This document shows, one piece after another, positions 30,288 to 50,474 of a stretch of DNA of 64,000 nt (positions are counted from its first letter, which is position 1; each line of letters begins with the position of its first letter). The position numbers were made by a program, and so were the translations under genes. The notes below the pieces were generated by a model. The model was not told where the DNA came from and ran no database searches. It was given only the letters and a program-made list of their open reading frames with translations. The DNA comes from Ignavibacteriota bacterium (lineage in GTDB: Bacteria; Bacteroidota; Ignavibacteria; Tepidaquicellales; OLB5): assembly GCA_003820375.1 (NCBI GenBank), contig RPQH01000008.1:8567-72566 (forward strand). The letters run 5' to 3'.

Positions 30288-30421
30288 ATAACTTAAAAGA
30301 AGCTAAAAAATAAAATTACATTATTAGCCATAGCGTTACACTCTATAATATCATTAAAGTTTTCCCAAAAAATTAATTACGGTTAAATATACCGTAATAT
30401 TAAAAACCTTAGGAGGTATAT

Positions 30422-31192: not shown

Positions 31193-31259
31193 AAAATAAT
31201 AATATATTGTTTCTCTCCTTCCCAAATTTTACAATGGGAAGGAGTGTTTTAATAAACCC

Positions 31260-34924: not shown

Positions 34925-34959
34925 AAAAAGCTGCGGGTAATCGCAGCTTTTTGTTTTTT
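34925..34959 (+). terminator. Rho-independent terminator
   Basis: aaaaagctgcg / cgcagcttttt stem with a 6-nt loop and a T-run. Confidence 0.8.
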
Positions 34960-35054: not shown

Positions 35055-35492
35055 ATGTTTTATTCCCGTTATTGCGAATACGTAATTAGAGCCCTGTCCT
35101 ACTTGTCACAATACCAACAAGAGAACAAATACATTATGGCCCGGGAAGTGGCTGATAAGACCGGTATCCCCTATCATTTTCTCTCAAAGATATTCCAGGA
35201 CCTTACAACGACCAGATGGGTACAATCTAAAAAAGGAAAGAACGGCGGTTTCATGCTTGCAGCAGACGGCAGTTCGCTCTCTTTATTAGAAATTATCAAG
35301 TGGAGTGACGGTATTCATAATTTCAATCAATGCATTCTTGGCGACAAAGTTTGCGGTGAAGATTTTGAATGCAGCGTTCACAGAAAATGCTGCCGTTTGA
35401 GGCTTGAGATAGCTGATTTTTTTGAGAAGATGACAATAGGTGAATTTTCGGAAATAAGGAGTGAGACACTGGGACAAAAACAGTTGAATTAG
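35055..35492 (+). CDS. Rrf2-family transcriptional regulator
   Basis: 145-aa ORF with an N-terminal wHTH (YVIRALSYLS...). The C-terminal Cys residues (CILGDKVCGEDFEC) are compatible with Fe-S binding. Confidence 0.8.
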   Translation: MFYSRYCEYVIRALSYLSQYQQENKYIMAREVADKTGIPYHFLSKIFQDLTTTRWVQSKKGKNGGFMLAADGSSLSLLEIIKWSDGIHNFNQCILGDKVCGEDFECSVHRKCCRLRLEIADFFEKMTIGEFSEIRSETLGQKQLN

Positions 35493-35597: not shown

Positions 35598-36179
35598 ATG
35601 AAGACAATTATTTTAGGAATGGGAAACACCCTGATAAGTGACGATGGGATAGGGATTGTTACATTGCGTTACCTGGAGAAAGTTTTAAGCCATTGCAAAG
35701 AAATTACCTTCTGCGAGACATCATGGGGTGGATTTAGAATCATAGACTTACTTGAGGGTTTTGATTATGCCGTTGTAATTGATTCAATTAAAACCGGAAA
35801 TAAGCCGACAGGTTCTATATACCATTATAAGCCTACAGATTTACTGCCTACACTGCGTTTAACTTCATACCACGATATAAATTTCATTACGGCATTAAGG
35901 CTTGCAGAGTCAATAAATGCAAAAGTCCCGTCCGATATAGACATTTTCGCCATCGAAGTTGAAGATAACCGCAGCATAAATGAAACAATCAATCCAACGT
36001 TGTGGAACAGCATCAAAGAATGCTCACAAGTCATTGCCGATAAATTATTCGAGAAAAACATTATTACATTTAAAATTCCTGCTGAAGAGTTTATTGGAAT
36101 AAAATCAGTTGATGAACTGGATTTATTATATCCCGAAAAAACAGCAGACAGAATAGAAACCGGATTAATTAACAATTAA
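35598..36179 (+). CDS. Hydrogenase maturation endopeptidase (HycI/FrhD/HoxW family) with C-terminal extension
   Basis: MKTIILGMGNTLISDDGIGI signature. The ORF track begins at TTG 35589; ATG 35598 is preferred. Confidence 0.8.
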   Translation: MKTIILGMGNTLISDDGIGIVTLRYLEKVLSHCKEITFCETSWGGFRIIDLLEGFDYAVVIDSIKTGNKPTGSIYHYKPTDLLPTLRLTSYHDINFITALRLAESINAKVPSDIDIFAIEVEDNRSINETINPTLWNSIKECSQVIADKLFEKNIITFKIPAEEFIGIKSVDELDLLYPEKTADRIETGLINN

Positions 36180-36192
36180 GAAAAATAAAGGA

Positions 36193-36876
36193 ATGAAAAC
36201 CGAGTCTGTACAATTACCAGGTAAATTATCAAAAAGAGAAGAAGATCTGAGATCTTCATTCCTGAAACAACTGGAAACAATACCGAACAGCGAAAAGATA
36301 AAATCCTGCATACAGTGCGGCACATGCACGGGTTCATGCCCGGTATCATATGCCATGGATATTTCGCCAAGAGAGATAATTGCATTGTTCAGGGCAGGAG
36401 ACCTTGAAACCCTTTTGAACAGCAAGTCTATCTGGATATGCGCATCATGCTATTCATGCCAGACAAGATGCCCCTCATTAATAAAAGTTACCGATATAAT
36501 GTATGCTTTGAAACGGCTTGCAATGGAAAAAGGCATATTCCCGAAGAAATTCCCTGCTCCTGCACTTTCAGAGACATTCGTAAAAGTTATGAATAACTAT
36601 GGACGGCTTCATGAGCCATTGCTTATTGTAAGATTTTTACTCAAGACTACTCCGTTCAAATTGCTTAATATGATGCCTTTGAGCCTGAAAATGGCAAAAA
36701 GAAAAAGAGTTGCTTATGTCCCTTCAAAAATAAAAGGACTTGAAGGATTTAAGAAGATAATAAAAAAAGCAGAGTTGATGGATTCTCCAAAGGAACTGCT
36801 GGAACCTCAATATTTGAAAGGTTCAGTTGGATACAGTGCTATTGCCAAAGAAACAGTAATGGAATCTAAAAAATAA
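36193..36876 (+). CDS. hdrC: Heterodisulfide reductase subunit C-like
   Basis: 227-aa ORF with CIQCGTCTGSCP and CASCYSCQTRCP motifs. Confidence 0.85.
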   Translation: MKTESVQLPGKLSKREEDLRSSFLKQLETIPNSEKIKSCIQCGTCTGSCPVSYAMDISPREIIALFRAGDLETLLNSKSIWICASCYSCQTRCPSLIKVTDIMYALKRLAMEKGIFPKKFPAPALSETFVKVMNNYGRLHEPLLIVRFLLKTTPFKLLNMMPLSLKMAKRKRVAYVPSKIKGLEGFKKIIKKAELMDSPKELLEPQYLKGSVGYSAIAKETVMESKK

Positions 36877-36890
36877 ATTAAGTTAATCAA

Positions 36891-37766
36891 ATGGATTATA
36901 CATATTACCCGGGCTGCAGTTTAGAATCAGCTCATAAAAGTTACAGCGATTCTGTTAAAAAAGTTTTTAAACATCTCGATTGTAATCTGATAGAATTGGA
37001 AGATTGGAATTGCTGCGGTGCAACTGCATATATGGGTGTAAAAGAAACCCTGTCATTTGCAATTTCTGCAAGAAACCTTGCACTTGCCGAAAAACATAAA
37101 AGAGATGTTATTGCTCCCTGCAGCGCATGTTATACAGTGTTAAGTAAAACCAACAGGTATTTAAAACAGCTTCCTGATTTTCACCAGAAAGTAAATGAAT
37201 GCCTGAAAGAAGCAGGTCTGCAGTATAATCTGACGGCTAGTGTAAGACATCCCCTTGATGTGCTGATAAATGATATAGGACTTGATAAGATAAAAGAGAA
37301 ATGTGTAAGAAGCCTTAAAGGATTGAAGATTGCTAACTATTACGGATGCCAGCTTGTAAGACCCGAAAGAGGATTTGATGACAGGGAAGTGCCCATGACA
37401 ATGGACAATTTATTTGAAGCATGCGGCGCTGAAAATGTTTATTATCCCTTTAAAGTAAAATGCTGCGGCGGTATGCTGATGACTACTTATGAAGACATTG
37501 CTTTGAAATTATCAAAAGAAATAATTGCATCGGCAGTAGAAAACAAAGCTGATTGTATTGTAACAACGTGCCCGCTTTGCCAGATGAATCTTGAAGCTTA
37601 CCAGGATTTGATTAATAAACATTACAACACGAATTATGACATGCCGGTATTTTTCTTCACCCAGGTTCTGGGAATGGCATTTGGATTTGATGAAAAAGAA
37701 CTTGGAATAGATACACTTTTAACTAAAGGAATTAAATTAAACGGTTTAACAACCATACATAATTAA
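36891..37766 (+). CDS. hdrB: Heterodisulfide reductase subunit B-like (two CCG domains)
   Basis: 291-aa ORF with CCG motifs DWNCCGA and KVKCCGG plus CPLC. Confidence 0.85.
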   Translation: MDYTYYPGCSLESAHKSYSDSVKKVFKHLDCNLIELEDWNCCGATAYMGVKETLSFAISARNLALAEKHKRDVIAPCSACYTVLSKTNRYLKQLPDFHQKVNECLKEAGLQYNLTASVRHPLDVLINDIGLDKIKEKCVRSLKGLKIANYYGCQLVRPERGFDDREVPMTMDNLFEACGAENVYYPFKVKCCGGMLMTTYEDIALKLSKEIIASAVENKADCIVTTCPLCQMNLEAYQDLINKHYNTNYDMPVFFFTQVLGMAFGFDEKELGIDTLLTKGIKLNGLTTIHN

Positions 37767-37772
37767 TATAAC

Positions 37773-38639
37773 ATGGACAACAAATTGTCAACAAACGGTT
37801 CACCAAACGGAGAAATAAGAATAGGTTTCTTTATCTGCCACTGCGGTGTAAATATTTCTACTATTGTTAATGTAGCTGAAGTAAGAGATTATGTAGCCAC
37901 ACTTCCGCACGTTGTTGTATCGAAAGATTATAAGTTCATGTGTTCAGACCCGGGGCAGGAAATAATAATAAATGCCGTAAAGACCAATAAGCTTAACAGG
38001 GTTGTAGTAGCAGCATGTTCACCATTGATGCATGAAGGAACATTCAGAGGTGCCTGTGAAAAAGCGGGAATCAATAAATTTTTATTCCAGATGGCAAATA
38101 TCCGTGAACATTGTTCATGGGTTCATGACGATAAAATTCGTGCAACGGAAAAAGCCAAAGCACTTGCACATGCGGCAGTGAAACGCGTTTCGTTCCATGT
38201 ACCGATGACCGTAAAAAAAGCAAAGGTTAATCCTGATACATTAATAGTAGGCGGAGGAATCTCTGGTATACAGGCAGCACTGGATATAGCTGATTCAGGC
38301 AACAATGTTTACCTGGTGGAAAGAGAACCTTCTATCGGCGGTAAGATGGCTTTGTTCGATAAGACATTCCCAACACTTGACTGCTCTGCTTGTATCTTAA
38401 CGCCTAAGATGGTATCGGTAGGACACAGGGATACAATAAAGTTATATACATGGAGTGAAGTTGTTGCAGTTTCGGGATTTTTAGGAAACTTTAAAGTAAC
38501 AATTAAAAAGAAAGCCCGGTATGTGGATACAGATAAATGCACAGGATGCGGACAATGCTGGAGCCACTGCCCTGCTACGAGATTCCCGTCAAAAAGACAG
38601 GTATTCTTTGGTGATAAACTGATTAACGAAAAAAGATAA
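37773..38639 (+). CDS. hdrA: HdrA N-terminal fragment (N-terminal Cys domain + first part of FAD domain + first half of inserted ferredoxin domain)
   Basis: 288-aa ORF with FICHCG, ACSPLMHE, IREHCSW, the FAD dinucleotide motif LIVGGGISGIQAALDIADSG, and CTGCGQCWSHCP. It stops about 20 codons later. Confidence 0.8.
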   Translation: MDNKLSTNGSPNGEIRIGFFICHCGVNISTIVNVAEVRDYVATLPHVVVSKDYKFMCSDPGQEIIINAVKTNKLNRVVVAACSPLMHEGTFRGACEKAGINKFLFQMANIREHCSWVHDDKIRATEKAKALAHAAVKRVSFHVPMTVKKAKVNPDTLIVGGGISGIQAALDIADSGNNVYLVEREPSIGGKMALFDKTFPTLDCSACILTPKMVSVGHRDTIKLYTWSEVVAVSGFLGNFKVTIKKKARYVDTDKCTGCGQCWSHCPATRFPSKRQVFFGDKLINEKR

Positions 38640-39041
38640 ATGTTACTAAAAGAAATAAAAGAACTGCTTAAATGCAATTGGTATTCTTCAGAAGAATTAC
38701 TGAATAAAGAAATACAATATTGCTTTGCAGCAGACTTAATGAGCGATGTATTAAGATACGGACGCACAGGTTCGCTTTTGATGACCGGCTTAACGAGCAA
38801 TCAAATACTTCAGGTTGCAGAGATACTTGACCTTAGCGGGATAATTTTTGTAAGAGGCAAAAAACCCGATGAAAATATAATAGCTACTGCAGAATTAAGG
38901 AAAATACCATTACTTTCAACTAATTTACTTTTATTTGACTCATGCGGTATACTGTACGCTCAAGGATTACGGGGAGGTAAAAGCAACCTGATGGAAAACG
39001 ATGAACCAAAGAGCAATGTACAGTCAATCGTTCACGATTAA
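38640..39041 (+). CDS. DRTGG domain protein
   Basis: 133-aa ORF whose ATG directly abuts the hdrA-N stop. It has the LMSDVL..GRTGSLLMTG pattern. Confidence 0.7.
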   Translation: MLLKEIKELLKCNWYSSEELLNKEIQYCFAADLMSDVLRYGRTGSLLMTGLTSNQILQVAEILDLSGIIFVRGKKPDENIIATAELRKIPLLSTNLLLFDSCGILYAQGLRGGKSNLMENDEPKSNVQSIVHD

Positions 39042-39441
39042 AGGCGGCGATTTCATAAATGCCGGTACGGTATCGGTTAGAATTAAACGGTTACTGAAAG
39101 AAATAGGCTTAAAACCGGATATAATTTATAGAGCAGCAATTTGCTGTTACGAAGCTGAAATGAATGTGGTCATGTATGCAAACGAGGCAACACTGGATTT
39201 TACGATTACTGTAGAAAATATTACTGTAAAATTATCGGATAAGGGACCGGGAATAAAAAATATAGAGCTCGCAATGAAGGAAGGATATTCGACTGCTACG
39301 GAAAAAATGAGAGAGATGGGTTTTGGCGCAGGAATGGGATTACCAAATATTAAAAATAATGCTGATGTATTCGAGATTGAGTCAGAGATTGCAAAGGGAA
39401 CTATCATCAGCTTTAAGATAAACTTAAATGGAAAGCATTAA
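39001..39441 (+). CDS. Anti-sigma-factor-type GHKL ATPase / serine kinase-like protein
   Basis: 146-aa ORF with HATPase_c-like motifs (DKGPGI, GFGAGMGLPN). Confidence 0.7.
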   Translation: MNQRAMYSQSFTIKGGDFINAGTVSVRIKRLLKEIGLKPDIIYRAAICCYEAEMNVVMYANEATLDFTITVENITVKLSDKGPGIKNIELAMKEGYSTATEKMREMGFGAGMGLPNIKNNADVFEIESEIAKGTIISFKINLNGKH

Positions 39442-40765
39442 TAACGGGAATTCGGGTCATTCAATATATTTCGATCCATCGAAATGTAACGGAGATATGG
39501 CTTGCCTCAGGATTTGCCCTGTAGAAGCTATCAGAGTCCGTAACAGAAAATCATATATGCTTCCGGAGAAATGTATTGATTGCGGTGTATGCGTGCAGGC
39601 ATGCAAATCAAAAGCAATTATTCCTTTAACCAATTCATTTACTGACCTCTCAAGCTTTAAATATACGATTGCAATTCCTTCGCTATCCATTTACAGCCAG
39701 TTTGACAGGCACATTACTCCTGATGTAATACTATCGGCGCTTAAGAAGATAGGTTTTAATGAAGTTGTTGATATAACTAAAGCTTGTGTAACCGTTTACA
39801 AAGCTATAAAAAAATATCTCAATGATAACAAAGGAAGAAAACCGCTTATATGCACATTTTGTCCAACTTGTTTGCGTCTAATTCACACAAAATATCCCGA
39901 GTTAATCCAGCATGTAATACCTGTTATCTCACCGATAGAGTTGGCAGCACGCGAAGCAAGAATTGAATATGCAAAAAGATACAGGGTAAAAAAGGAAGAA
40001 ATCGGAATCATTTACATAACACCATGCCCTTCCAGGTTAGCATTAATATCACAGGAAGATGAAAATTATTATCCAAGCTTTGACGGTGCAATTCCTATTA
40101 CAGATATTTATAACAGCCTTTACGCAGCTATTAATACTACATTAAAAGACAGGCATAACGGAACAGAGCATTTTGCAATGAACGGCTTTGGGCTGCATTT
40201 CGGATACCTGGGCGGACTCAGCTATATGCTCGGCACAAATAATCATATAACAATTTCGGGAATAAACAATGTACAGTTCCTGCTAGATGAAATTGACAAA
40301 GGAAAATTAAGCAATATAGAGTTTGTAGAAATGAACTCATGCCAGGAAGCATGTACCGGTGGCTCATTGGTTGTTGAAAACGCATACATGGCAGTAAATA
40401 AAATGAAATATCTTATTGATGAATTTGGGGAAAAGAAACTGCCCATCGGCAAAAAAGATGATACAGATATTAATTCGGTTTATTCGGATTCAATTTTCCC
40501 TTCTATAAACGGGGAACAAAATAATGTTGACCTTGAAGATGCAATAGGAAAGATATCAAAACGGAATGAAATATATTCACAGCTAATGAAAATAAACTGC
40601 AGTGCATGCGGTTCACCGACATGCATGAGCTTTGCAGAAGATGTTGTGCACGATGAAGCCAATATGAATGACTGCATATTTGTTCAGAATGAAGAGTTAA
40701 AGCATAAGTTAAAAGAAAAGATAATGACAATTCTTGAATTACAGCAAAAGCTTAACGAAAAATGA
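39428..40765 (+). CDS. [FeFe]-hydrogenase-like (H-cluster domain) putative sensory protein with N-terminal 2x4Fe-4S and C-terminal 4-Cys domain
   Basis: 445-aa ORF. Ferredoxin motifs are CNGDMACLRICP and CIDCGVCVQACK. Degenerate H-domain motifs are CTFCPTC (L1-like), TPCPSR (L2-like, no Lys) and EMNSCQEACTGG (L3-like). C-terminal CSACGSPTCMSFAE. Confidence 0.75.
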   Translation: MESINNGNSGHSIYFDPSKCNGDMACLRICPVEAIRVRNRKSYMLPEKCIDCGVCVQACKSKAIIPLTNSFTDLSSFKYTIAIPSLSIYSQFDRHITPDVILSALKKIGFNEVVDITKACVTVYKAIKKYLNDNKGRKPLICTFCPTCLRLIHTKYPELIQHVIPVISPIELAAREARIEYAKRYRVKKEEIGIIYITPCPSRLALISQEDENYYPSFDGAIPITDIYNSLYAAINTTLKDRHNGTEHFAMNGFGLHFGYLGGLSYMLGTNNHITISGINNVQFLLDEIDKGKLSNIEFVEMNSCQEACTGGSLVVENAYMAVNKMKYLIDEFGEKKLPIGKKDDTDINSVYSDSIFPSINGEQNNVDLEDAIGKISKRNEIYSQLMKINCSACGSPTCMSFAEDVVHDEANMNDCIFVQNEELKHKLKEKIMTILELQQKLNEK

Positions 40766-41097
40766 AATTAAAAGAATTAACAGAGAAATGCGGGCTGGAA
40801 ACCGTTAACGGCTTTGCTGATGAAAATAAAGAAATAGCCGGTGCTTATTCAAGTGACCTCCTGAGCGATGTAATTGCCAATGCAAAAAAAGATTTTGTCT
40901 GGATAACATTGCAGACTCATTTAAATATAATTGCAGTAGCAGCACTGAAAGAGCTTGCAGCTATAATAATAGTAAATAATAAAGAAATAGACAAAGATAC
41001 ATTACAAAAAGCGGAAGAAGAAAAAGTTACTCTTTTAAGAACAGGATTAAATACTTTTCAGATAAGCGGAAAAATTTATGAGTGCGGTATTCATTAA
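40762..41097 (+). CDS. DRTGG domain protein
   Basis: 111-aa ORF with the LLSDVI pattern. It is paralogous to 38640-39041. Confidence 0.65.
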   Translation: MKLKELTEKCGLETVNGFADENKEIAGAYSSDLLSDVIANAKKDFVWITLQTHLNIIAVAALKELAAIIIVNNKEIDKDTLQKAEEEKVTLLRTGLNTFQISGKIYECGIH

Positions 41098-41111
41098 AAA
41101 CAAAATGTTTA

Positions 41112-41825
41112 ATGAAAATAAAAGCAGATATCCATATTCATACATGCTTATCACCTTGTGCAGATATATTAATATCGCCAAAAAGAATAGTGGAAAAGGC
41201 ATTTAATACAGATTTAAATATGATTTTTATAACAGACCATAATTCACTTAATAATGCAGAAGCGGCAATCAAAGCTGCCCGGTATTATCCATCGCTTGCA
41301 GTTTACCCCGGTATGGAAATCACTTCAAGAGAGGAAGTTCACATACTCGGACTTTTCGGAAATATGGCTGATGCTCTAAGCACAGAAGAAGTAATTACAA
41401 CTTACCTGCCTGATGCAGTAAGTGATTCTGAATACCGTGAGCAAATCATAGCAAATGAGTTTGATGAAGTTGAAGGGTTCTGTTTAAAATCATTATTCAA
41501 TGCAGTAAATATTAAGACTGAAGATATAATAAAACTTATACACAATAATAACGGAATTGCAGCAGCGGCACATATAGACAGGCCAAGCTTTTCAATAATA
41601 AGCCAATTAGGGTTTATTCCGGATGATATAGGATTTGATGCATTGGAGATTTCACCAAACCTTGATATAGAAAAAGCAAAAGAAAAATATCCTGAATACT
41701 TAGGAAAATATAAATTCTTAAGAGGTTCCGATTCTCATTCATTGAATTGGATAGGTTCCGTTTACACTGAGTTTGAAGGTAAAAATAATACCTTTGGAGA
41801 GTTTGCACAGTATTTAATTTCCTGA
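41112..41825 (+). CDS. PHP-domain phosphoesterase
   Basis: MKIKADIHIHTCLSPC..FITDHN..AAHIDR metal-binding His/Asp pattern. The ORF track start at 41082 overlaps the upstream gene; ATG 41112 is preferred. Confidence 0.75.
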   Translation: MKIKADIHIHTCLSPCADILISPKRIVEKAFNTDLNMIFITDHNSLNNAEAAIKAARYYPSLAVYPGMEITSREEVHILGLFGNMADALSTEEVITTYLPDAVSDSEYREQIIANEFDEVEGFCLKSLFNAVNIKTEDIIKLIHNNNGIAAAAHIDRPSFSIISQLGFIPDDIGFDALEISPNLDIEKAKEKYPEYLGKYKFLRGSDSHSLNWIGSVYTEFEGKNNTFGEFAQYLIS

Positions 41826-41827
41826 TA

Positions 41828-42367
41828 ATGCAGGATATTTCATTACATATACTTGATATAGCTGAAAATTCAATCAAAGCAGGTGCAAATTTTATTGAGA
41901 TAGCGATAAACGAAGATACAGAGAAAAATTCTTTGACAATTGAAATAAGAGACAACGGAAAAGGAATGAGCAGCGAGATGGCTGCTAAAGTGAAGGACCC
42001 GTTTACAACATCAAGGACAGAAAGAAAAGTAGGTTTAGGGCTTTCACTTCTTGAACAGGCAGCAATAGCAGCAGGAGGAAAAGTAACGGTTGAATCTGAA
42101 GAAGGAAAAGGCACAACGGTAAAAGCAGAATTCATGTATGATCATATAGACAGGAAACCGATGGGAAAAATTACTGATACTCTTATTTCGTTATTATCTA
42201 ATGAAAATAATATAGATATCAAATACACTCATAAAAAGAACACAGGTGAATTTGAATTTGTCAGCACACAATTAAAAAGTTTATTAGGATTAAATTCCTT
42301 AAAAGACAGCAAAGTGTTAATTGTACTTAAAGAAATTATAAACTCCAAATTAGAAGAAATATCATAG
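41828..42367 (+). CDS. GHKL (histidine-kinase-like) ATPase domain protein
   Basis: 179-aa ORF with LHILDIAENSIKAGA (N-box), DNGKGM and GLGLSLL. Confidence 0.75.
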   Translation: MQDISLHILDIAENSIKAGANFIEIAINEDTEKNSLTIEIRDNGKGMSSEMAAKVKDPFTTSRTERKVGLGLSLLEQAAIAAGGKVTVESEEGKGTTVKAEFMYDHIDRKPMGKITDTLISLLSNENNIDIKYTHKKNTGEFEFVSTQLKSLLGLNSLKDSKVLIVLKEIINSKLEEIS

Positions 42368-42375
42368 GAGAAAAA

Positions 42376-42828
42376 ATGGAAGCTGATGTTATCGACAAAA
42401 TAATAGAGAAACATCCTAAAGAGCCATCATCAATTATACAGGTACTTCTTGATGTTCAAAGTGAACTGTATTATTTACCCGAAGATGTTCTTAAATACGT
42501 TTCCGCTGAATTAAAAGTACCTATAAGCAGAACTTACAATCTTGCTACGTTTTATAAAGCATTCAGCTTAAAGCCAAAAGGCAAACATCCTATTTCAGTT
42601 TGTACGGGTACTGCCTGTTACGTTGAAGGTGCTGATAAATTAATGGAGCAGTTTGAAAGAGAATTGGGTATAAAAGACGGGGAGACAACTGCTGACAAGA
42701 AATTCAGCTTAGAAAGTGTAAGATGTCTTGGCTGCTGCGGATTAGCACCTGTAGTAACAGTAGGCAAGAACTTACATGGCAAGCTGCCGTCTTCAAAAGT
42801 TGGTAAAATTTTAAAACAATATAAATAA
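42376..42828 (+). CDS. NuoE/HydC-like 2Fe-2S subunit
   Basis: 150-aa ORF with CTGTAC...CLGCCGLAP. Confidence 0.9.
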   Translation: MEADVIDKIIEKHPKEPSSIIQVLLDVQSELYYLPEDVLKYVSAELKVPISRTYNLATFYKAFSLKPKGKHPISVCTGTACYVEGADKLMEQFERELGIKDGETTADKKFSLESVRCLGCCGLAPVVTVGKNLHGKLPSSKVGKILKQYK

Positions 42829-42836
42829 AAAGTAAA

Positions 42837-43226
42837 ATGGCTTCAAAAATATCAATCGAAGACTTAGCCAAAATAAGGAAAGAGACATTGAGAACGATGA
42901 ACCTGAGAGAAGGTTCAGGAAAAGTTAAGATGAATGTGCATATGGGTACATGCGGTATTGCAGCAGGAGCAAGGAAAATCCTCGAGGCAGTACTGAGCGA
43001 GGTTGAAACACGCGGGCTAAATGATATAATAGTAACAAATTCCGGCTGTGCAGGGCTTTGCAGCCAGGAACCTATGATGACTGTAGAGGTCTATAACGAA
43101 CCGGCACCGGTTAAATATGTTTCTCTTACACCGGAAAAGGTTAAAAAGATTTTTGATTCACACGTTTTAAAAGGTGAAATAGTAAAAGAATATGCACTCG
43201 CTTTAGGCAGCGAGACAACGGTATAA
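42837..43226 (+). CDS. Thioredoxin-like [2Fe-2S] ferredoxin
   Basis: 129-aa ORF with MGTCGIAAGA...GCAGLCSQEP. Confidence 0.8.
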   Translation: MASKISIEDLAKIRKETLRTMNLREGSGKVKMNVHMGTCGIAAGARKILEAVLSEVETRGLNDIIVTNSGCAGLCSQEPMMTVEVYNEPAPVKYVSLTPEKVKKIFDSHVLKGEIVKEYALALGSETTV

Positions 43227-43252
43227 AGTTTTTTAACTAAAGGAGTAAATAA

Positions 43253-45079
43253 ATGGCATACAGAACATATTTAATGGTATGCGCGGGTACTGGATGTGTA
43301 GCCAATAACTCGATGAAAATTAAAGAAAAGCTGGAAGATGAATTACTTAAACGGGGAATTCATAATGAGGTCAGTGTAGTAACAACAGGATGCAACGGCT
43401 TCTGTGCTGCAGGACCTCTGATGGTTGTACAACCCGATGGAGTATTTTACCAGCTTTTAAAAGAGAGCGATATTCCACTGCTTGTAGAAGAGCATTTCAT
43501 AAAAGGACGGCCGGTAAAGAAATTAATGTACACTCCTCCCAAGGAGAAGTCGTCTATCCCGAAAATGTCAGACATCCCCTTCTTTGCTAACCAAACTTTG
43601 ATTGCATTGAAAAACAGGGGCCTGATTGACCCGGAAAAAATTGACGAATACATTGCAAGAGGCGGTTATGAGGCCCTTGCAAAAGTATTAACTACAATGA
43701 CATCTGAAGAGGTAATAAAAGAGATTAAAGATTCCGGTTTACGCGGCAGAGGAGGCGGAGGATTCCCAACAGGTATTAAATGGGAAACCTGTAAGAGAAT
43801 GGAAGCTGATACAAGGTATGTTATCTGTAATGCAGATGAGGGTGACCCCGGTGCATTCATGGATAGAAGCATTATTGAATCAGACCCTCATGCAGTTTTA
43901 GAAGGAATGTGTATAGGTGCATTTGCCATCGGTGCTTCTGACGGATATATCTATATCAGGAATGAATACCCTATTGCACTGCAAAGATTGCAGGTAGCAA
44001 TTAAGCAGGCACGTGAATACGGTCTTCTGGGGAAGAACATATTCGGTACAGATTTCAGCTTTGATGTCAGGATAGTCAGAGGAGCCGGAGCATTCGTTTG
44101 CGGTGAATCAACTGCACTCATGGCATCAATAGAAGGCAAGCCGGGCGAACCGAGAGCTAAATATGTTCATACGGTTGAAAAAGGACTTCACGATAAGCCG
44201 ACATGTCTTAATAATGTTGAGACATGGGCTAATGTTGCACAGATAATAACCAGAGGTGCTTCATGGTTCTCAAGCATAGGTACCGGAGATGTCTCCGAAG
44301 ATGCATGGGGCGGAAGTAAAGGTACAAAAGTATTTTCACTTTCAGGTAAAGTAAATAACACCGGATTAATAGAAGTACCGATGGGTATATCACTCCGCCA
44401 GATAATTTATGATATAGGCGGCGGAATAAAAGACGGAAAGAAATTTAAAGCTGTACAGACAGGCGGACCATCAGGCGGATTTATTCCTGAAAGCCTGCTT
44501 GACCTGCCGGTTGATTATGAAGAACTGACTAGAGTCGGCTCTATGATGGGTTCCGGAGGTATGGTTGTTACCGATGAGGATAACTGCATGGTTGAAATGG
44601 CAAAATATTTTCTCAGCTTCACACAGGCTGAATCATGCGGAAAATGTATTCCATGCAGGGAAGGTACAAAGAGAATGCTGGATATACTTGAAAAAATAAC
44701 AACCGGTGAAGGCACTGAAGAAGATCTTGTATTGCTTGAAGAGCTTTCATACATGGTTGTTGACTCATCGCTGTGTGCTTTAGGCGGTTCAGCACCGAAC
44801 CCGGTATTGACTACCTTAAAATATTTCAGAGATGAATACGAGACTCACGTAAGAGATAAAAAGTGTCCTGCTCACTGCTGCAAAGCTTTAATAAAGTACT
44901 CGATCGATCCGAATATATGCGTAGAAAAAGGACATGGCTGCGGTGTATGTTCAAAGAGCTGTCCTGACGGAGCAATAATAGGTGAATCAAAACAGGTACA
45001 CTATATTGACCTGATGAAATGCGGAAAATGCGGCATATGTTATGACTCGTGTAAGTTTAATGCAATTTATATTGAATAA
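43253..45079 (+). CDS. NuoF/HydB-like flavoprotein, long form (N-terminal 2Fe-2S + FMN/NADH + C-terminal 2x4Fe-4S)
   Basis: 608-aa ORF. N-terminal CAGTGC..GCNGFCAAGP, then GRGGGGFPTG and ESCGKCIPCREG. The C-terminus carries CVEKGHGCGVCSKSCP and CGKCGICYDSC. Confidence 0.9.
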   Translation: MAYRTYLMVCAGTGCVANNSMKIKEKLEDELLKRGIHNEVSVVTTGCNGFCAAGPLMVVQPDGVFYQLLKESDIPLLVEEHFIKGRPVKKLMYTPPKEKSSIPKMSDIPFFANQTLIALKNRGLIDPEKIDEYIARGGYEALAKVLTTMTSEEVIKEIKDSGLRGRGGGGFPTGIKWETCKRMEADTRYVICNADEGDPGAFMDRSIIESDPHAVLEGMCIGAFAIGASDGYIYIRNEYPIALQRLQVAIKQAREYGLLGKNIFGTDFSFDVRIVRGAGAFVCGESTALMASIEGKPGEPRAKYVHTVEKGLHDKPTCLNNVETWANVAQIITRGASWFSSIGTGDVSEDAWGGSKGTKVFSLSGKVNNTGLIEVPMGISLRQIIYDIGGGIKDGKKFKAVQTGGPSGGFIPESLLDLPVDYEELTRVGSMMGSGGMVVTDEDNCMVEMAKYFLSFTQAESCGKCIPCREGTKRMLDILEKITTGEGTEEDLVLLEELSYMVVDSSLCALGGSAPNPVLTTLKYFRDEYETHVRDKKCPAHCCKALIKYSIDPNICVEKGHGCGVCSKSCPDGAIIGESKQVHYIDLMKCGKCGICYDSCKFNAIYIE

Positions 45080-45090
45080 AGGAGAACAAC

Positions 45091-46854
45091 ATGATAAAAT
45101 TAACTATAGACGGAAAACAACTCGAGGTTTTTGAAGATACCTCTATATTAAAAGCTGCGGAAAAAGCTGGTATTTGGATACCTACTATGTGTCATTGTGA
45201 TTACATAGAACCATATGGTGTATGCCGTCTTTGCAGTGTTGAGGTGGTAAAAGGAAAAAGAAGCCGTATTGTAACTGCCTGCAACTATCCCGTCAGGGAA
45301 GGGCTTACGGTCAGAACAAACTCCGAAAGAGTAAAATGGATAAGAAAAATCATTATGGAGCTTATGCTTTCACGCTGGCCTAATGTTCCCGCTGTAAAGG
45401 AAATGGCTGAACAGCTTGGTATATCCAAACCAAGATTTGAAAGCAAAGAAAAAGATGAAGCTGAAGATGCATGTATATTATGCGGTATGTGCGTTAATGT
45501 TTGCAATGACCTTGTAGGTAAAGGCGTACTCGGATTTTCGAAAATGGGAATTGAAAGAGAAGTTGTTCTTCCTTACAATGAACGCTCGGAAGAATGTATC
45601 GCATGCGGTGCATGCGCTTATGTTTGCCCGACCAAGCATATTAAAGTTAAATCACTTGAATATGAAAGAGGAGCAATACAGGACTGGAGCCTAGCATCCA
45701 AAACTGCAATTTATGTTCCTACCATGCAGGCTGTACCAAGAGTACCGACTATCGATGAGGCATCCTGTATCAACAAGCAAACCGGCGGATGTAAAGCATG
45801 TCAAACATACTGCGAGCCGGGAGCTATAAATTATGATATGAAAGATGAAGAAATCGAGGTCGAAGTTGGACAGATACTGATTACTACAGGATACCAGCTT
45901 ATGGACCTGACAAAGATGCCGCAGTTTGGTTACGGGCGTCTTGATAATGTATATTCATCACTTGATTTTGAACATATGCTTAACTCAACCGGACCGACTA
46001 ACGGTACAATTCAGTGTAAAGACGGCTCAGTTCCAAGAGCAGTTGGTATTATTCACTGCATTGGTTCAAGAGATGAAAATTATCACAAATACTGCTCAAG
46101 AGTATGCTGTATGTATGCTCTGAAATTTGCACATCTTATTAAAGACAGAACAACAGCAGAAGTATATCAATTCTATATTGATATGAGGGCATTTGGAAAA
46201 GGGTATGAAGAATTCTACAAGAGACTGCTTGATGAAGGAGTAAACATGATAAGAGGTAAAGTCGGAGAAGTAACCGAATGCAGGGTTGACGGCGAAAAGC
46301 CATTCCTGAAAGTTGCATGTGAAGATACACTAATAGGAAAATTCAGGGAAATTCCGCTTGATATGGTAATCCTGTGTCCTGCAATAGAATCGAATGCAGA
46401 CTCATCGGATTTGAAAAAGATATTCTCAATCAGCCAGAGTCCTGATAAATTCTTCCTCGAAAGACATCCAAAGCTTGACCCGATGTCAACAATGACAGAC
46501 GGAATATTTATAGCAGGGTGTGCCCAGGGACCGAAGGATATTCCGGATTCGGTTGCACAGGCATCAGGAGCCGCAGCAAAGATATTATCACTTATTTCAG
46601 TTGGTGAAGTTGCAGTTGATCCTATCAAAGCTGAAATAGTTGAAGAACGCTGCAGCGGATGCCGTATCTGTAATAACCTGTGTCCGTACGGTGCTATATC
46701 ATATATTGATGAAAAGAAAATATCCTTCATTAATGATATGTTATGCAAAGGATGCGGAACATGTGTAGCTGCATGCCCGTCATCAGTAATTACAGGCAAA
46801 GGATTCACAGATGCACAGATAATGGCAGAAATTGAAGGCTTATTGGCTATATAA
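45091..46854 (+). CDS. Fusion protein: HydA/NuoG-type 2Fe-2S + 2x4Fe-4S N-domain joined to the C-terminal two-thirds of HdrA
   Basis: 587-aa ORF. Residues 1-~190 resemble the N-terminus of hydA in this window (IDGK..ILKAA..IPTMCH..GVCRLCSVEV; CILCGMCVNVC; CIACGACAYVCP). The rest continues HdrA exactly where 37773-38639 stops (KTAIYVPTMQAVP..C..CKACQTYC..ILITTGY..IHCIGSRD..CSRVCC..IFIAGCAQGPKDI..CSGCRICNNLCP..CKGCGTCVAACP). Confidence 0.85.
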   Translation: MIKLTIDGKQLEVFEDTSILKAAEKAGIWIPTMCHCDYIEPYGVCRLCSVEVVKGKRSRIVTACNYPVREGLTVRTNSERVKWIRKIIMELMLSRWPNVPAVKEMAEQLGISKPRFESKEKDEAEDACILCGMCVNVCNDLVGKGVLGFSKMGIEREVVLPYNERSEECIACGACAYVCPTKHIKVKSLEYERGAIQDWSLASKTAIYVPTMQAVPRVPTIDEASCINKQTGGCKACQTYCEPGAINYDMKDEEIEVEVGQILITTGYQLMDLTKMPQFGYGRLDNVYSSLDFEHMLNSTGPTNGTIQCKDGSVPRAVGIIHCIGSRDENYHKYCSRVCCMYALKFAHLIKDRTTAEVYQFYIDMRAFGKGYEEFYKRLLDEGVNMIRGKVGEVTECRVDGEKPFLKVACEDTLIGKFREIPLDMVILCPAIESNADSSDLKKIFSISQSPDKFFLERHPKLDPMSTMTDGIFIAGCAQGPKDIPDSVAQASGAAAKILSLISVGEVAVDPIKAEIVEERCSGCRICNNLCPYGAISYIDEKKISFINDMLCKGCGTCVAACPSSVITGKGFTDAQIMAEIEGLLAI

Positions 46855-46895
46855 TAAAAGATTTAAGAGAAATATAATTTAATATTCATATTATA

Positions 46896-47327
46896 ATGGA
46901 AACTCAAATAAAATCAAAAGAGAATTTTAATCCAAGGATAGTTGCCTTTCTTTGCAACTGGTGTACATACACAGGTGCAGACCTTGCAGGTGTAGCACGC
47001 ATGAAATCTTCACCAAGTGTCCGTGTAATAAGGACCATGTGCAGCGGAAGAGTTGACCCTACATTTGTTTTAAAAGCGTTCAAGATGGGAGCTGACGGAG
47101 TTATGATAGGCGGATGCCACATCGGAGACTGTCATTATTCAGAAGGTAATTTTAAAACATTGAGAAGGGTGGAATTTCTTAAGATAATGCTGAAGGATTT
47201 TGGTATTGACCCCAAAAGATTACGGCTTGAATGGATATCTGCTTCGGAAGGTGATAAATATGCTCATGTTACAAATGAGTTCGAGAAGGAACTGAGAGAA
47301 CTGGGACCATTAGTATTACAGGAGTAA
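46896..47327 (+). CDS. mvhD: MvhD/FlpD-like hydrogenase delta subunit
   Basis: 143-aa ORF with FLCNWCTY..GADLAG..CSGRVDP..GGCHIGDCHY. Confidence 0.9.
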   Translation: METQIKSKENFNPRIVAFLCNWCTYTGADLAGVARMKSSPSVRVIRTMCSGRVDPTFVLKAFKMGADGVMIGGCHIGDCHYSEGNFKTLRRVEFLKIMLKDFGIDPKRLRLEWISASEGDKYAHVTNEFEKELRELGPLVLQE

Positions 47328-47540
47328 TTCCCAAATACCAAAGCAAAGAATAATAAATAAAAATGAACCACAAAGACACTAAGCAAAAGAGAAATTGAAT
47401 TATTAAGTAAAGATGTTGAATTGATAAAAACAGTCTTACATGAACAATATTTAACTTAGCAGCTTTGTGACTTAGCAGTAAAAGATGTTTGAAAGATATT
47501 GAAATTTAAAAAATAGAAGTAAATTTAAAATTACAAAATC

Positions 47541-48527
47541 ATGTCTAAACCAAAACTTGCATTATATTGGGCTTCATCTTGCGGCGGATGTGAGATAGCT
47601 GTAGTAGATCTGGAAGCAAAAATTCTTGATGTAGCCGGTTTCTTTGAAATTGTGTTATGGCCTTGTGTAATGGATTTTAAATATAAAGATATTGAAGCAC
47701 TGCCTGACGGCGATATTACACTCTGCCTGTTCAACGGAGCAATAAGAACTTCCGAGAATGAACATCTTGCAAAAATGCTCAGGGCAAAATCTAAAGTAAT
47801 GGTTGCTTTCGGCTCATGTGCAGGTGACGGAGCTATTCCTTCATTAGCTAATTTCTACGATAAGGACTCTATATACGAATACGTTTTCAAAACATGTCCT
47901 TCACTGGAAGAATCATCCAGGGGTGTTTATCCGGAGACTAAAACTACTATGCCCGAGGGTGAAATCGAAATACCGGTCTTCTGGGAAACGGTAAAAACAC
48001 TTGACCAGGTGATTGATGTTGATTATTATATTCCCGGCTGCCCGCCGCAGACATTTCAGATAGCAGCAGCAGTTGAAGCTGTAATTGATATTCTGCAGAA
48101 CGGTAAGCCGCTTCCTCCAAAGGGAACAGTATTAGGTGCCGGAGATAAAACATGCTGTGATGACTGCACCAGAGTAAAGAGCGAAAAGAAGATAAAAAAA
48201 TTCTACAGGCCGCAGGATATAATTACTGATCCCGAACAATGCCTGCTGGAGCAGGGTATTGTTTGCATGGGACCTGCTACACGCAATGGATGTGAAGCAT
48301 TATGCATGAAAGCAAACATGGGATGCAGAGGATGTTACGGACCTCCTGAAGGTGTGCTTGACCAGGGTGCCAAGATGGTTTCTGCTTTAAGCTCGGTCAT
48401 TGACGCTCAGAATCCTGAAGACGCAAAGAAAATAATAGATACCATTGCAGATCCGCTTGGTACATTTTACAGGTTTTCAATGGCTTCATCAATATTAAGA
48501 AGAGTACAGAAAAAAAATAACAAGTAA
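47541..48527 (+). CDS. mvhG: [NiFe]-hydrogenase small subunit (group 3, Mvh/F420-non-reducing type)
   Basis: 328-aa ORF with WASSCGGCEI, PGCPP and a C-terminal CMGPATRNGCEALC..GCRGCYGP. Confidence 0.88.
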   Translation: MSKPKLALYWASSCGGCEIAVVDLEAKILDVAGFFEIVLWPCVMDFKYKDIEALPDGDITLCLFNGAIRTSENEHLAKMLRAKSKVMVAFGSCAGDGAIPSLANFYDKDSIYEYVFKTCPSLEESSRGVYPETKTTMPEGEIEIPVFWETVKTLDQVIDVDYYIPGCPPQTFQIAAAVEAVIDILQNGKPLPPKGTVLGAGDKTCCDDCTRVKSEKKIKKFYRPQDIITDPEQCLLEQGIVCMGPATRNGCEALCMKANMGCRGCYGPPEGVLDQGAKMVSALSSVIDAQNPEDAKKIIDTIADPLGTFYRFSMASSILRRVQKKNNK

Positions 48528-48545
48528 ACTTTATTATCTAATACA

Positions 48546-50021
48546 ATGAGACAAATAAAAATTGACCCAGTAACAAGATTAGAAGGACATGGCAAAATAG
48601 ACATTTTTGTAAATGATGAGGGTAACGTTGAGAATTGTTATTTTCAGGTTCCCGAGTTAAGAGGATTCGAGAAATTTGCCCAGGGACGCCCGGTAGAAGA
48701 AATGCCAAGAATAACGACAAGAATTTGCGGTGTATGCCCTGAAGCTCATCATATGGCAGCCGCCAAAGCATGTGATGCTGTCTATAAAGTAAAAATTCCT
48801 TCTGCAGGAAAAAAACTGAGAGAACTGCTTTATAATGTATTTTATACAACCGACCATACGGTTCACTTTTATGCACTTGGCGGACCGGATTTTGTTGTTG
48901 GTCCCGATGCTCCTGCAGCAGAAAGAAACATTATTGGTGTGATAAACAAAGTAGGTTTGGAAGTAGGCGGCAAGGTAATAAAGCTCAGGTCTATGTGCCA
49001 GGAGATAATCCAGATGCTCGGCGGAAAGAAAATCCACCAGGTTGCAGCTATTCCCGGCGGCGTATCAAGAGGAATTAACAACGAAGAAAGAGATAAGATT
49101 AAAGAATATTCTAAATATTTTGTGGATTTCGGACAATTTACTTTTAAGATATTCGAAGACATAGTTCTGAAGAACAAAGCATATGTTGATATGATACTTT
49201 CCGACCCGTTTGTACATAAGACATATTACATGGGAATGGTAGATGAGAATAACCAGGTAAACTTCTACGATGGAAAAGTTAAGGTTGTTGATCCTGACGG
49301 AAACGAATTCTGCAAATACAGTCCAGAAGATTATCTAAAGCATATTACTGAACATACTGAGAAATGGAGCTATTTAAAATACCCGTATCTTAAGAACGTG
49401 GGATGGAAGGGATTTGTTGACGGAAAAGACAGCGGTGTTTACCGTGCAACCCCTCTTTCAAGATTGAACGTTACAAATGGAATGCCCACTCCCCTTGCTC
49501 AGGCAGAATATGAAAAATATTTTGAGACATTAACAGGCGACAAGTCAGGAAAGAAACCGGTTCACCACACACTTGCAACACACTGGGCAAGAATAATCGA
49601 GCTTCAGTATGCAGCAGAGAAGGTTGTGGAATTGATTAATGACCCTGAGATAACTTCACCTGATTACAGAGCTATTCCAACTGAAATTCCTACCGAAGGA
49701 ATTGGAATAGTAGAAGCTCCAAGAGGAACTTTGACACATCATTACAAAACCGATGAAAGAGGAATTGTAACTGAAGCCAACTTAATTGTTGGAACAACAA
49801 ACAACCATGCTGCAATTTCAATGTCAATTAAAAAAGCAGCACAGGGATTAATACACAAAGGTGTTGAAATTACCGATGGTGTATTGAACAGGATAGAAAT
49901 GGCATTCAGAGCATATGACCCGTGTTTCGGATGTGCAACACATTCCTTACCGGGAGAGATGCCGATAGAACTAAATATAAGAAATTCTGAAGGCGAGATA
50001 ATACAGACAGCTAAGAGATAA
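48546..50021 (+). CDS. mvhA: [NiFe]-hydrogenase large subunit (group 3, Mvh type)
   Basis: 491-aa ORF. N-terminal RICGVCPEAHH and C-terminal DPCFGCATH are followed by a 25-aa cleavable extension. Confidence 0.92.
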   Translation: MRQIKIDPVTRLEGHGKIDIFVNDEGNVENCYFQVPELRGFEKFAQGRPVEEMPRITTRICGVCPEAHHMAAAKACDAVYKVKIPSAGKKLRELLYNVFYTTDHTVHFYALGGPDFVVGPDAPAAERNIIGVINKVGLEVGGKVIKLRSMCQEIIQMLGGKKIHQVAAIPGGVSRGINNEERDKIKEYSKYFVDFGQFTFKIFEDIVLKNKAYVDMILSDPFVHKTYYMGMVDENNQVNFYDGKVKVVDPDGNEFCKYSPEDYLKHITEHTEKWSYLKYPYLKNVGWKGFVDGKDSGVYRATPLSRLNVTNGMPTPLAQAEYEKYFETLTGDKSGKKPVHHTLATHWARIIELQYAAEKVVELINDPEITSPDYRAIPTEIPTEGIGIVEAPRGTLTHHYKTDERGIVTEANLIVGTTNNHAAISMSIKKAAQGLIHKGVEITDGVLNRIEMAFRAYDPCFGCATHSLPGEMPIELNIRNSEGEIIQTAKR

Positions 50022-50252: not shown

Positions 50253-50474
50253 ATGGAATATCTTATAATAATAGAAAAATCAAAGACCGGATATAGCGCT
50301 TATCCACCCGACTTACCAGGTGTAGGAGTAACCGGAAAGACAAAAAAATTAGTACTTGCACTTATAAAAGAAGCCATAGAATTCCATTTAGAAGATATTT
50401 ATTCAAGCGGGAAAAAAATTCCTAAACCTAAAAATGAGGCTGCTACTGTTACAGTAAAAATTAAGGCTGCATAG
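50253..50474 (+). CDS. hicB: HicB antitoxin
   Basis: 73-aa ORF starting 1 nt after hicA. YSAYPPDLPGVGVTG..EAIEFHLE is the UPF0150/HicB N-domain pattern. Confidence 0.8.
   Translation: MEYLIIIEKSKTGYSAYPPDLPGVGVTGKTKKLVLALIKEAIEFHLEDIYSSGKKIPKPKNEAATVTVKIKAA

Follow-up and report, generated by a model that had tools for sequence, protein, structure and literature searches.

The 64-kb window analysed here (64,000 nucleotides of contig RPQH01000008.1 from an Ignavibacteriota bacterium known as a metagenome-assembled genome, MAG) carries at positions 35598-50021 a run of 17 genes which probably encode one cytoplasmic Mvh-Hdr-Bfu hydrogenase, with HdrA reassembled from two chains and a Bfu module attached at the low-potential exit of HdrA. 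The predicted enzyme would comprise an Mvh-type [NiFe] module with its MvhD adaptor (genes 15-17), an HdrABC-type flavin adenine dinucleotide (FAD) module (genes 2-4 and the C-terminal half of gene 14), and a HydBC/BfuBC-type flavin mononucleotide (FMN) module (genes 11 and 13) that would sit on the BfuA-like N-terminal domain of gene 14. As gene 14 is a fusion of parts of both, the HydBC/Bfu and HdrA FAD modules should belong to one assembly, and this physical coupling appears well supported by the fusion and by its conservation. The subunits would thus form a single complex in which electrons cross between HdrA and Bfu through the fusion.

The 17 open reading frames (ORFs) are consecutive on the plus strand, each at the position given to it in the initial annotation, with intergenic spacing from -41 to +213 nt. 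Their products were identified by Pfam and NCBIfam profile searches of the translations and are, in order:

35598-36179, plus strand: gene 1, HycI-type [NiFe]-hydrogenase maturation endopeptidase (TIGR00072, 77.8 bits, above cutoff; Pfam HycI)
36193-36876, plus strand: gene 2, HdrC-like protein with two CxxCxxCxxxCP motifs (two [4Fe-4S] clusters)
36891-37766, plus strand: gene 3, HdrB with two CCG domains (Pfam CCG, E = 4e-28, two stretches)
37773-38639, plus strand: gene 4, N-terminal half of HdrA (5ODC_A residues 3-258, E = 3e-95)
38640-39041, plus strand: gene 5, DRTGG protein (Pfam; absent in loci L008 and L011)
39001-39441, plus strand: gene 6, SpoIIAB-like Ser-kinase/anti-sigma-type ATPase (HATPase_c_2; fused to a CBS pair in locus L009)
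39428-40765, plus strand: gene 7, putative sensory [FeFe]-hydrogenase-like protein (HydS) of the M2e/group D type (two Fer4, Fe_hyd_lg_C, PF04060)
40762-41097, plus strand: gene 8, second DRTGG protein (Pfam)
41082-41825, plus strand: gene 9, PHP-family phosphoesterase (Pfam)
41828-42367, plus strand: gene 10, stand-alone GHKL/HATPase_c protein (Pfam HATPase_c, E = 7e-18)
42376-42828, plus strand: gene 11, BfuC/HydC, a NuoE/HoxE-like [2Fe-2S] protein with the PF01257 domain of BfuC (E = 3e-51, 174 bits)
42837-43226, plus strand: gene 12, HydD-like small thioredoxin-like [2Fe-2S] ferredoxin (profiles; travels with the cassette block described below)
43253-45079, plus strand: gene 13, BfuB/HydB, a long NuoF of 608 aa (full-length match to 7T2R_B, 7Q4V_B and 8A6T_B)
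45091-46854, plus strand: gene 14, BfuA::HdrA-C fusion of 587 aa (Fer2_4/Fer4 and C-terminal part of HdrA)
46896-47327, plus strand: gene 15, MvhD [2Fe-2S] adaptor (PF02662 FlpD, E = 1e-52, 177 bits)
47541-48527, plus strand: gene 16, MvhG/VhuG-like small subunit (profiles)
48546-50021, plus strand: gene 17, VhuA-like, group-3 Mvh/HydL-like large subunit (7T2R_D 396 bits, 5ODC_F 387 bits)

HdrA is encoded in two pieces. Residues 14-268 of the gene 4 product align to 5ODC_A 3-258 and comprise the N-terminal cluster domain and the beginning of the thioredoxin-reductase FAD domain (GGGISG, DCSAC); the protein closes with one of the two Cys motifs in the inserted ferredoxin domain, the first (C256/259/262/266, then P), and a 22-residue tail. 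The second Cys motif of that domain (C226/234/237/241) is found in gene 14, whose residues from about 201 to 587 form the C-terminal half of HdrA (201-585 aligning to 8RVU_a 276-653), with the remaining FAD domain carrying the CSRVCC cluster site and the C-terminal 2x[4Fe-4S] domain with both its motifs. In the printed alignments the two motifs of the inserted ferredoxin domain lie at 5ODC residues about 245-258 and 288-304. Since the first is in gene 4 and the second in gene 14, with no overlap or loss, the cut is clean and falls between the domain halves, at a position where the thioredoxin-reductase fold of canonical HdrA is already interrupted. On the 777 positions of the NCBIfam HdrA2 profile, gene 4 covers 1-256, residues 166-584 of gene 14 cover 239-640 and gene 15 covers 640-773, so the three abut in order. 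The alignments thus support genes 4 and 14 as complementary halves of a single HdrA with BfuA spliced in between. An assignment of motifs II and III of gene 14 to the inserted ferredoxin domain, suggested by the hidden Markov model, was rejected: motifs I and II align without gaps to the ferredoxin domain of WorA, and gene 4 supplies the missing HdrA motif.

An unsplit version of this protein occurs naturally. Among 1.84 billion 50%-identity representatives, about a dozen clusters match gene 14 from residue 1 into the HdrA part, and one of them, P0171, holds in one chain the N-terminal FAD part of HdrA, motif 1, an acidic linker, BfuA, motif 2 and the C-terminal part of HdrA, which shows genes 4 and 14 to belong to a single unit, with BfuA lying within the inserted ferredoxin domain. 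P0154 is a triple fusion of BfuA::HdrA-C with MvhD, while P0145 and P0150 (about 1,090 aa) have a second HdrA-like module added. Several representatives of the fusion family stop at about residue 505 and have no C-terminal ferredoxin domain. A different set combining Bfu and HdrA is present in an Anaerolineales MAG (L073:1-6863), with NuoF, a small stand-alone BfuA and an unsplit HdrA::MvhD fusion, together with an FrhB/FdhB-like protein, a GXGXG protein and a glutamate-synthase-type FMN protein.

Residues 1-187 of gene 14, its N-terminal domain, are best matched by WorA of the tungsten aldehyde oxidoreductase WorABCSL (9MQX_A, 134 bits), followed by HydA1 of the bifurcating [FeFe] hydrogenase 8A6T. 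Residues 1 to about 190 contain the [2Fe-2S] ligands and two CxxCxxCxxxC motifs, and no Cys or His was found in residues 64-127, the segment which in HydA holds the His-ligated cluster. In the Bfu nomenclature (PMC12318220, PMC9304861), type-2 BfuA proteins, WorA and BamI among them, have clusters A1, A2 and A4 but lack A3 and A5. With one [2Fe-2S] and two [4Fe-4S] clusters and no A3 segment, which is optional in the N-terminal cluster domain of BfuA, the domain would be a type-2-like BfuA (A1, A2, A4). The C-terminal half of HdrA sits in gene 14 where [FeFe] HydA carries its H-domain.

The NADH-reactive partner of this domain, gene 13, matches HydB end to end, with 807 bits to 7T2R_B (NiFe-HydB), 793 to 7Q4V_B (FeFe-HydB), 723 to 8A6T_B and 719 to 9MQX_B. 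By the Pfam series and the structure-sequence alignment it has the domains of BfuB, namely an N-terminal thioredoxin-like [2Fe-2S] domain, the FMN/NADH domain, SLBB, an N3-type [4Fe-4S] site, a His/Cys hinge (H532, C538, C542/543) and a C-terminal 2x[4Fe-4S] domain. According to the Bfu papers, bifurcating NuoF homologues are told apart from non-bifurcating ones by three of these, the N-terminal 2Fe-2S domain, the C-terminal ferredoxin domain and the His/Cys hinge. Gene 13 thus has the sequence of a complete bifurcating-type HydB/BfuB, for which coupled reduction of NAD+ and ferredoxin is predicted, and these features are conserved across loci at 56-86% identity.

The other subunits of the predicted enzyme are those of an Mvh-Hdr complex. 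HdrB (gene 3) has its cysteines in the pattern C9...C41C42...C77xxC80 and C153...C191C192...C227xxC230, so that its two CCG domains and the two [4Fe-4S] sites of HdrC correspond to those of MvhADG-HdrABC. Gene 17 keeps the motifs RICGVC (residues 59-64) and DPCFGCATH (459-467), followed by a 24-residue tail for proteolytic maturation; with MvhD, these CxxC motifs and this maturation peptide are again as in MvhADG-HdrABC. It scores about equally against NiFe-HydL of Acetomicrobium mobile (396 bits) and MvhA (387 bits), and its best NCBIfam match is VhuA, below the equivalog cutoff; on this basis it is classed as a group-3, Mvh-like large subunit. The widest gap of the run, 213 nt at 47328-47540, lies between genes 15 and 16.

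The split fusion is widespread and conserved. The copy of gene 14 from the window is RPI19135.1 of an Ignavibacteriae MAG, and more than 120 clusters at 90% identity, mostly from Ignavibacteria and Bacteroidota MAGs, match it over the full query at 69% identity or more, with lengths of 586-615 aa (nearly all 586-589). Gene 4 likewise has more than 120 clusters at 90% identity, with 284-296 aa except for two partial entries. A scan with one genome per species gave 76 loci, and gene order was mapped by tblastn. The same junctions were found in the assemblies of eight other Ignavibacteria species and of five more distant MAGs. The complete 17-gene order is present in seven of these Ignavibacteria (L001, L002, L004-L007, L076), while in the eighth (L003) it is kept through gene 14, where the contig ends. 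The order is also that of a Sumerlaeota MAG (L012), except for its disrupted hydrogenase end; L008 and L011 have the core order HdrC-HdrB-HdrA_N-NuoE-NuoF-fusion-MvhD-small-large; and a Desulfobacterales MAG (L013) has HdrA_N-NuoE-NuoF-fusion with neither MvhD nor hydrogenase. All cluster motifs of both HdrA halves are conserved in 14 of 14 loci, from Ignavibacteriota, Sumerlaeota, Desulfobacterota and unclassified MAGs. Pairwise ratios of nonsynonymous to synonymous substitution rates (dN/dS) against L001, L007, L002 and L005 are 0.03-0.2 for every gene with estimable dS, including the junction segment of gene 14, and are rough upper bounds, dS being saturated. Both HdrA halves are under strong purifying selection.

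A few of these loci have peculiarities of their own. In L012 (12325-18146) the small-subunit match extends over two frames, and an HtrA-like protease and a PDZ protein (13310-17121) stand between the small- and large-subunit genes; in L001 (8161-9985) it is the NuoF match that extends over two frames. These frame splits are either assembly frameshifts or decay in the genomes concerned. In L013 (5804-7543) two REC domains are fused in frame to the N-terminal half of HdrA, and a GAF histidine kinase, a sigma-54 activator and a REC-PAS kinase are encoded around it, which hints at phospho-control of the complex or at a sensory use of the core.

These results bear out each element of the initial annotation and strengthen several. 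The 17 same-strand genes, their domains and their order agree with the profile annotation, and independent assemblies show this order again; the hdrA N-fragment and the HdrA-C fusion that it described have turned out to be complementary halves with a clean cut, under purifying selection and with an unsplit counterpart in P0171; its NADH/FMN module of HydBC type is backed by the full-length HydB match of gene 13 (807/793 bits); and for its coupling of that module to the HdrA module the gene fusion counts as direct evidence.

The course of electrons through the complex is suggested by the attachment point of BfuA. In HdrA and BamE, low-potential electrons leave the bifurcating FAD by the inserted ferredoxin domain, whereas the C-terminal ferredoxin domain with MvhD or BamF is the input side (bioRxiv 10.64898/2026.04.10.717634). 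As BfuA is spliced into the inserted ferredoxin domain, the canonical low-potential exit, the cluster chain would run from FAD through HA5/HA6, A4, A2 and A1 to BfuB. Electrons from H2 would pass from the [NiFe] site through MvhG and MvhD to the HdrA FAD, from which the high-potential branch would lead through HdrC and HdrB to a putative disulfide-type acceptor and the low-potential branch through HA5/HA6, A4, A2 and A1 to BfuB/BfuC, there to reduce NAD+ and ferredoxin. This would make two bifurcations in series, which should be reversible. By our own estimate from standard potentials, NAD+ as co-acceptor would keep H2 oxidation exergonic where plain Mvh-Hdr stalls, at the cost of less reduced ferredoxin per H2.

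The closest known systems share modules with the operon and differ from it in their connection. All six subunit types of the group 3c complex MvhADG-HdrABC (5ODC, 8RVU) are present in Mvh/Hdr-like form, and the HdrA halves align to 5ODC_A/8RVU_a over nearly their full length at about 55-60% identity by eye, with all cluster and FAD motifs kept. In MvhADG-HdrABC, however, HdrA is a single chain and there is no NADH module, whereas in the operon all the HdrA domains and motifs are distributed over genes 4 and 14, BfuA interrupts the inserted ferredoxin domain, and there is an additional FMN module of the NuoE/NuoF type. The Hdr and Mvh proteins of the operon reach no NCBIfam equivalog cutoff (e.g., VhuA 396 vs 800 and HdrB 217 vs 345; HdrC is also below). 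Moreover, MvhADG-HdrABC belongs to methanogens and has CoM-S-S-CoB as its acceptor, while the operon comes from an Ignavibacteriota MAG, not from a methanogen.

Benzoyl-CoA reductase II (BCRII), Bam[(BC)2DEFGHI]2, contains two bifurcation modules in one complex (bioRxiv 10.64898/2026.04.10.717634) and is the sole characterised complex joining a HydBC/Bfu-type module (BamGHI) to an HdrA-type one (BamE, with the MvhD-like BamF and the HdrBC-like BamD). BamI resembles the N-terminal domain of gene 14 in having one [2Fe-2S] and two [4Fe-4S] clusters. Electrons enter BCRII from Bfu, by way of the C-terminal ferredoxin domain and BamF, and reach the tungsten active site through the inserted ferredoxin domain; in the operon it is this inserted domain to which Bfu is fused, with the [NiFe] hydrogenase on the MvhD side. 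No gene of the aldehyde oxidoreductase type was found in or beside the operon, which encodes neither BamB/BamC nor the fused HdrA dimer of BamE; its HdrA is single and split, and its HdrB keeps both CCG motifs. In BCRII a confurcation is followed by a bifurcation; the operon would stand for a proposed bifurcation on bifurcation.

In NiFe-HydABCSL of A. mobile (7T2R/7T30) a group-3 [NiFe] dimer is mounted on bifurcating HydBC, and this complex gives the best PDB matches of genes 13 and 17 (807 and 396 bits). Its HydA has the His-ligated A3, the entry from HydSL, and a C-terminal A5 domain, and it has neither MvhD nor HdrABC; gene 14, unlike that type 3 HydA, has no A3, and the C-terminal half of HdrA replaces the C-terminal domain. 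The [FeFe] HydABC(D) systems with HydS, exemplified by TamHydS, share with the operon the architecture of gene 7, its kinase-like ATPase neighbours and its position 5' of NuoE, the small ferredoxin and NuoF, but the place of catalytic HydA is taken in the operon by the BfuA::HdrA-C fusion and the Mvh-type [NiFe] hydrogenase. Yet another combination is seen in the archaeal [FeFe]/[NiFe] hybrid hydrogenases. Full-text literature searches turned up neither an account of a BfuA-fused split HdrA nor one of an Hdr-Bfu-Mvh operon, though the review of HdrA modules by Appel et al. (2021) may list the context. That no characterised enzyme has this subunit composition, as the initial annotation held, agrees with the literature found, and the wiring is likewise without precedent; the concept itself has precedents, a [NiFe] dimer on HydBC being characterised in A. 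mobile and two bifurcation modules in one complex being known from BCRII.

Genes 5-10 and 12 form an accessory cassette. Gene 7 has an N-terminal 2x[4Fe-4S] domain, an H-domain with four cluster cysteines and TFCP replacing TSCCP, and a C-terminal Cx2Cx4Cx16C motif (C391, C394, C399, C416); it has no PAS domain, and all the sequence features of M2e/group D are present, including the missing proton-relay Cys. The HydEFG genes were not found in the window. TamHydS of Thermoanaerobacter mathranii, an M2e-type protein with Cx2Cx4Cx16C, is reported to be encoded upstream of bifurcating HydABC and next to a kinase-like ATPase (PMC8163306), which documents the association of an H-cluster-like protein and an ATPase with HydABC operons that the initial annotation had named. 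Literature searches for DRTGG/PHP cassettes in hydrogenase operons gave nothing usable, the TamHydS paper (PMC8163306) being the only source for such a link. L009 (4680-5627) and L010 have no HydS-like gene in the cassette; in its place, a CBS pair is fused to the N-terminus of the SpoIIAB-like kinase. With input domains that can be swapped, the cassette resembles a signalling module and is probably, judging by its domains, a kinase/phosphatase switch with HydS as an H2- or redox-sensing input. Since L008 and L011 do without genes 5-10 and 12, their core being unchanged, the cassette is accessory, dispensable for the architecture and outside the catalytic core. Insertion of the cassette was considered as the cause of the HdrA split and rejected, HdrA being split in L008 and L011 as well.

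The cassette block also has a history of its own, which agrees with the description of the operon as mosaic. Identity to the window in L009/L010 and in L008/L011, respectively, is 73-74% and 56-57% for gene 13, 54-55% and 52-56% for the HdrA halves (genes 4 and 14), and 67% and 66-68% for gene 17. In the PDB ranking the NuoF of the window prefers HydB of NiFe and FeFe hydrogenases, and that of L008 prefers WorB. These discordant identities and the PDB ranking suggest that the block of cassette, NuoE, small ferredoxin and NuoF was exchanged, with a HydABC-type operon as a plausible source. The split-HdrA/Bfu/Mvh core predates this block. Within Ignavibacteria the identity of gene 11 (NuoE) to the window is erratic, 87% in L001 and 49-55% in L003-L007, with 70-86% for NuoF, which suggests that NuoE was replaced separately or is evolving fast.

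An assembly chimera, a decaying hdrA with an inserted HydBC cassette, or separate enzymes sharing an operon would each account for the interrupted reading frame of HdrA and for the differing history of the cassette-NuoF block and its flanks. Any of these is now highly improbable, the comparative data having effectively refuted them: the same junctions, at about 38.6 and 45.1 kb in the window, recur in at least 13 independent assemblies from several phyla (the eight Ignavibacteria and five distant MAGs); both halves have more than 120 clusters of fixed length, if a few partial or mis-started entries are set aside; both halves and the junction have a dN/dS far below 1; all cofactor motifs are intact; and HdrA is split without a cassette in L008 and L011 and exists unsplit in P0171. 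NADH-linked Hdr systems of the Flx-Hdr type are known, and the split-HdrA/NuoEF core of L013, with no hydrogenase or MvhD, would fit a path from NADH to Hdr. Bfu might then be a plain NAD(H) diaphorase and the enzyme an H2:NAD+/disulfide oxidoreductase or an NADH-dependent Hdr, with the HdrA FAD as the sole bifurcation site, if any; this is improbable, for gene 13 keeps every feature separating HydB/BfuB from NuoF/HoxF, holds them at 56-86% identity across loci and scores 807 bits against a bifurcating HydB.

A stronger case, though still a rather unlikely one, can be made for the same complex running in the opposite direction, with NADH and reduced ferredoxin confurcated by BfuBC and the electrons passed through the fusion and HdrA to form H2 at the [NiFe] site. 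It would be the [NiFe] counterpart of H2-evolving HydABC, and HdrBC would supply or sink the second electron or serve as a thiol-based control branch. The HydS-type cassette and the HydD-like ferredoxin are typical of the HydABC operons of fermenters, a pyruvate:ferredoxin oxidoreductase (PFOR) and a second 2-oxoacid:ferredoxin oxidoreductase are encoded in the window, Ignavibacteria have been reconstructed in the MAG paper as fermenters shedding NADH and reduced ferredoxin as H2, and Bfu enzymes are reversible according to the Bfu literature. However, low-potential entry into a bifurcating HdrA FAD needs a simultaneous high-potential donor, i.e., thiol oxidation at HdrB, and with such a co-donor the opposite direction would yield no net electron sink for a fermenter; moreover, L008 and L011 retain the same core with no cassette, and the characterised Mvh-Hdr complexes oxidise H2. 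H2 oxidation therefore appears weakly favoured as the working direction of the Mvh-Hdr-Bfu complex.

Several points weigh against the proposed H2-oxidising complex with serial bifurcation. A covalent link is no proof of an electron-transfer distance between HA6 and A4, an FAD site formed by two polypeptides is unusual, and an AlphaFold2 model of genes 4 and 14 concatenated, made from the single sequence, was uninformative (mean predicted local distance difference test score, pLDDT, 33). The fermentative context (Ignavibacteria as fermenters, PFOR, the second 2-oxoacid oxidoreductase and the HydS cassette) favours H2 production; serial bifurcation would give less reduced ferredoxin per H2 than plain Mvh-Hdr, so that its advantage is doubtful; and in a host which is no methanogen a disulfide is only the putative substrate of HdrB. 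The locus of L013 implies that the core can work with other partners or that Bfu acts as an electron donor, and the carriers found are all MAGs.

The conserved unit is slightly larger than the 17 genes of the initial annotation, with an Rrf2 gene upstream and protease and hyp genes downstream:

34925-34952, plus strand: terminator-like hairpin with a 12-bp stem and T-run, ending the upstream response-regulator gene
35055-35492, plus strand: Rrf2-family regulator (Pfam Rrf2, E = 2e-23)
50729-51208, plus strand: second hydrogenase maturation protease (Pfam and NCBIfam profiles)
51991-58141, plus strand: hypA, hypB, hypF, hypD and hypE for [NiFe]-site maturation (NCBIfam profiles)

The hairpin likely marks the 5' boundary of the unit, and in most Ignavibacteria loci (L001, L002, L005, L006, L007, L076) synteny places the Rrf2 gene directly 5' of the operon. 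The terminator scan gave a strong site just upstream and none within the operon, and base composition is even across the region. A sigma-70 promoter scan returned 63 sites vs 64 in shuffled sequence, the model being ill-suited to this phylum, and an Rfam search of the window gave no matches. Gene 1 starts at ATG 35598, an alternative upstream TTG at 35589 in the ORF list being less likely. Two maturation endopeptidase genes (35598-36179 and 50729-51208) thus bracket one [NiFe] large-subunit gene, and the upstream one is longer (194 aa from ATG 35598) with a weak Pfam HycI score; in L008-L011 one protease gene was detected per locus, 3' of the large subunit. A 73-aa HicB-like antitoxin ORF (50253-50474) lies between the large-subunit gene and the second protease. 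A double-REC protein is encoded just upstream in the window (33719-34897), as in several other loci.

Farther away, the window encodes a 1,207-aa PFOR, a two-gene 2-oxoacid:ferredoxin oxidoreductase-like pair and a malic enzyme::phosphotransacetylase fusion (262-3885, 5203-8062 and 9405-11702). As sources of reduced ferredoxin and NAD(P)H, these are consistent with an anaerobic fermentative host. A HipA-type toxin kinase and several proteins with the C-terminal sorting domain of the type IX secretion system (Por_Secre_tail) are encoded at 26912-28204, 28521-32495 and 58931-63830, and fit an origin in the Fibrobacteres-Chlorobi-Bacteroidetes group (Ignavibacteriota).

To our knowledge, only four types of module for flavin-based electron bifurcation have been described, and we know of no enzyme shown to chain two bifurcation modules before the 2026 preprint on BCRII. 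The modules of the present operon and the idea of chaining them are therefore known, while the variant with genetically fixed wiring is undescribed and widely distributed in uncultured bacteria. It is a second, independent combination of HdrA and Bfu, with another attachment point and a hydrogenase as partner, and its wiring, being fixed by the fusion, makes it a clean natural test case for low-potential electrons leaving HdrA and entering Bfu. The full proposal, a four-substrate hydrogenase in which HdrA-FAD and Bfu-FMN bifurcations are wired serially via the low-potential arm of HdrA and which is common but overlooked in uncultured Ignavibacteria and some other phyla, is tentative and somewhat doubtful. 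If it holds, H2 could be oxidised at partial pressures too low for plain Mvh-Hdr, or electrons more negative than ordinary ferredoxin could be generated. A paper on Ignavibacteria MAGs files such genes as 'group 3c MvhADG/HdrABC' and lists a '[FeFe] group A hydrogenase'. Surveys and MAG papers would in the same way enter these genes as ordinary 'group 3c Mvh/Hdr', and the HydS-like gene possibly as '[FeFe] hydrogenase', so that the H2 metabolism and the NAD(H)/ferredoxin balance of a lineage widespread in sediment and groundwater would be misjudged.

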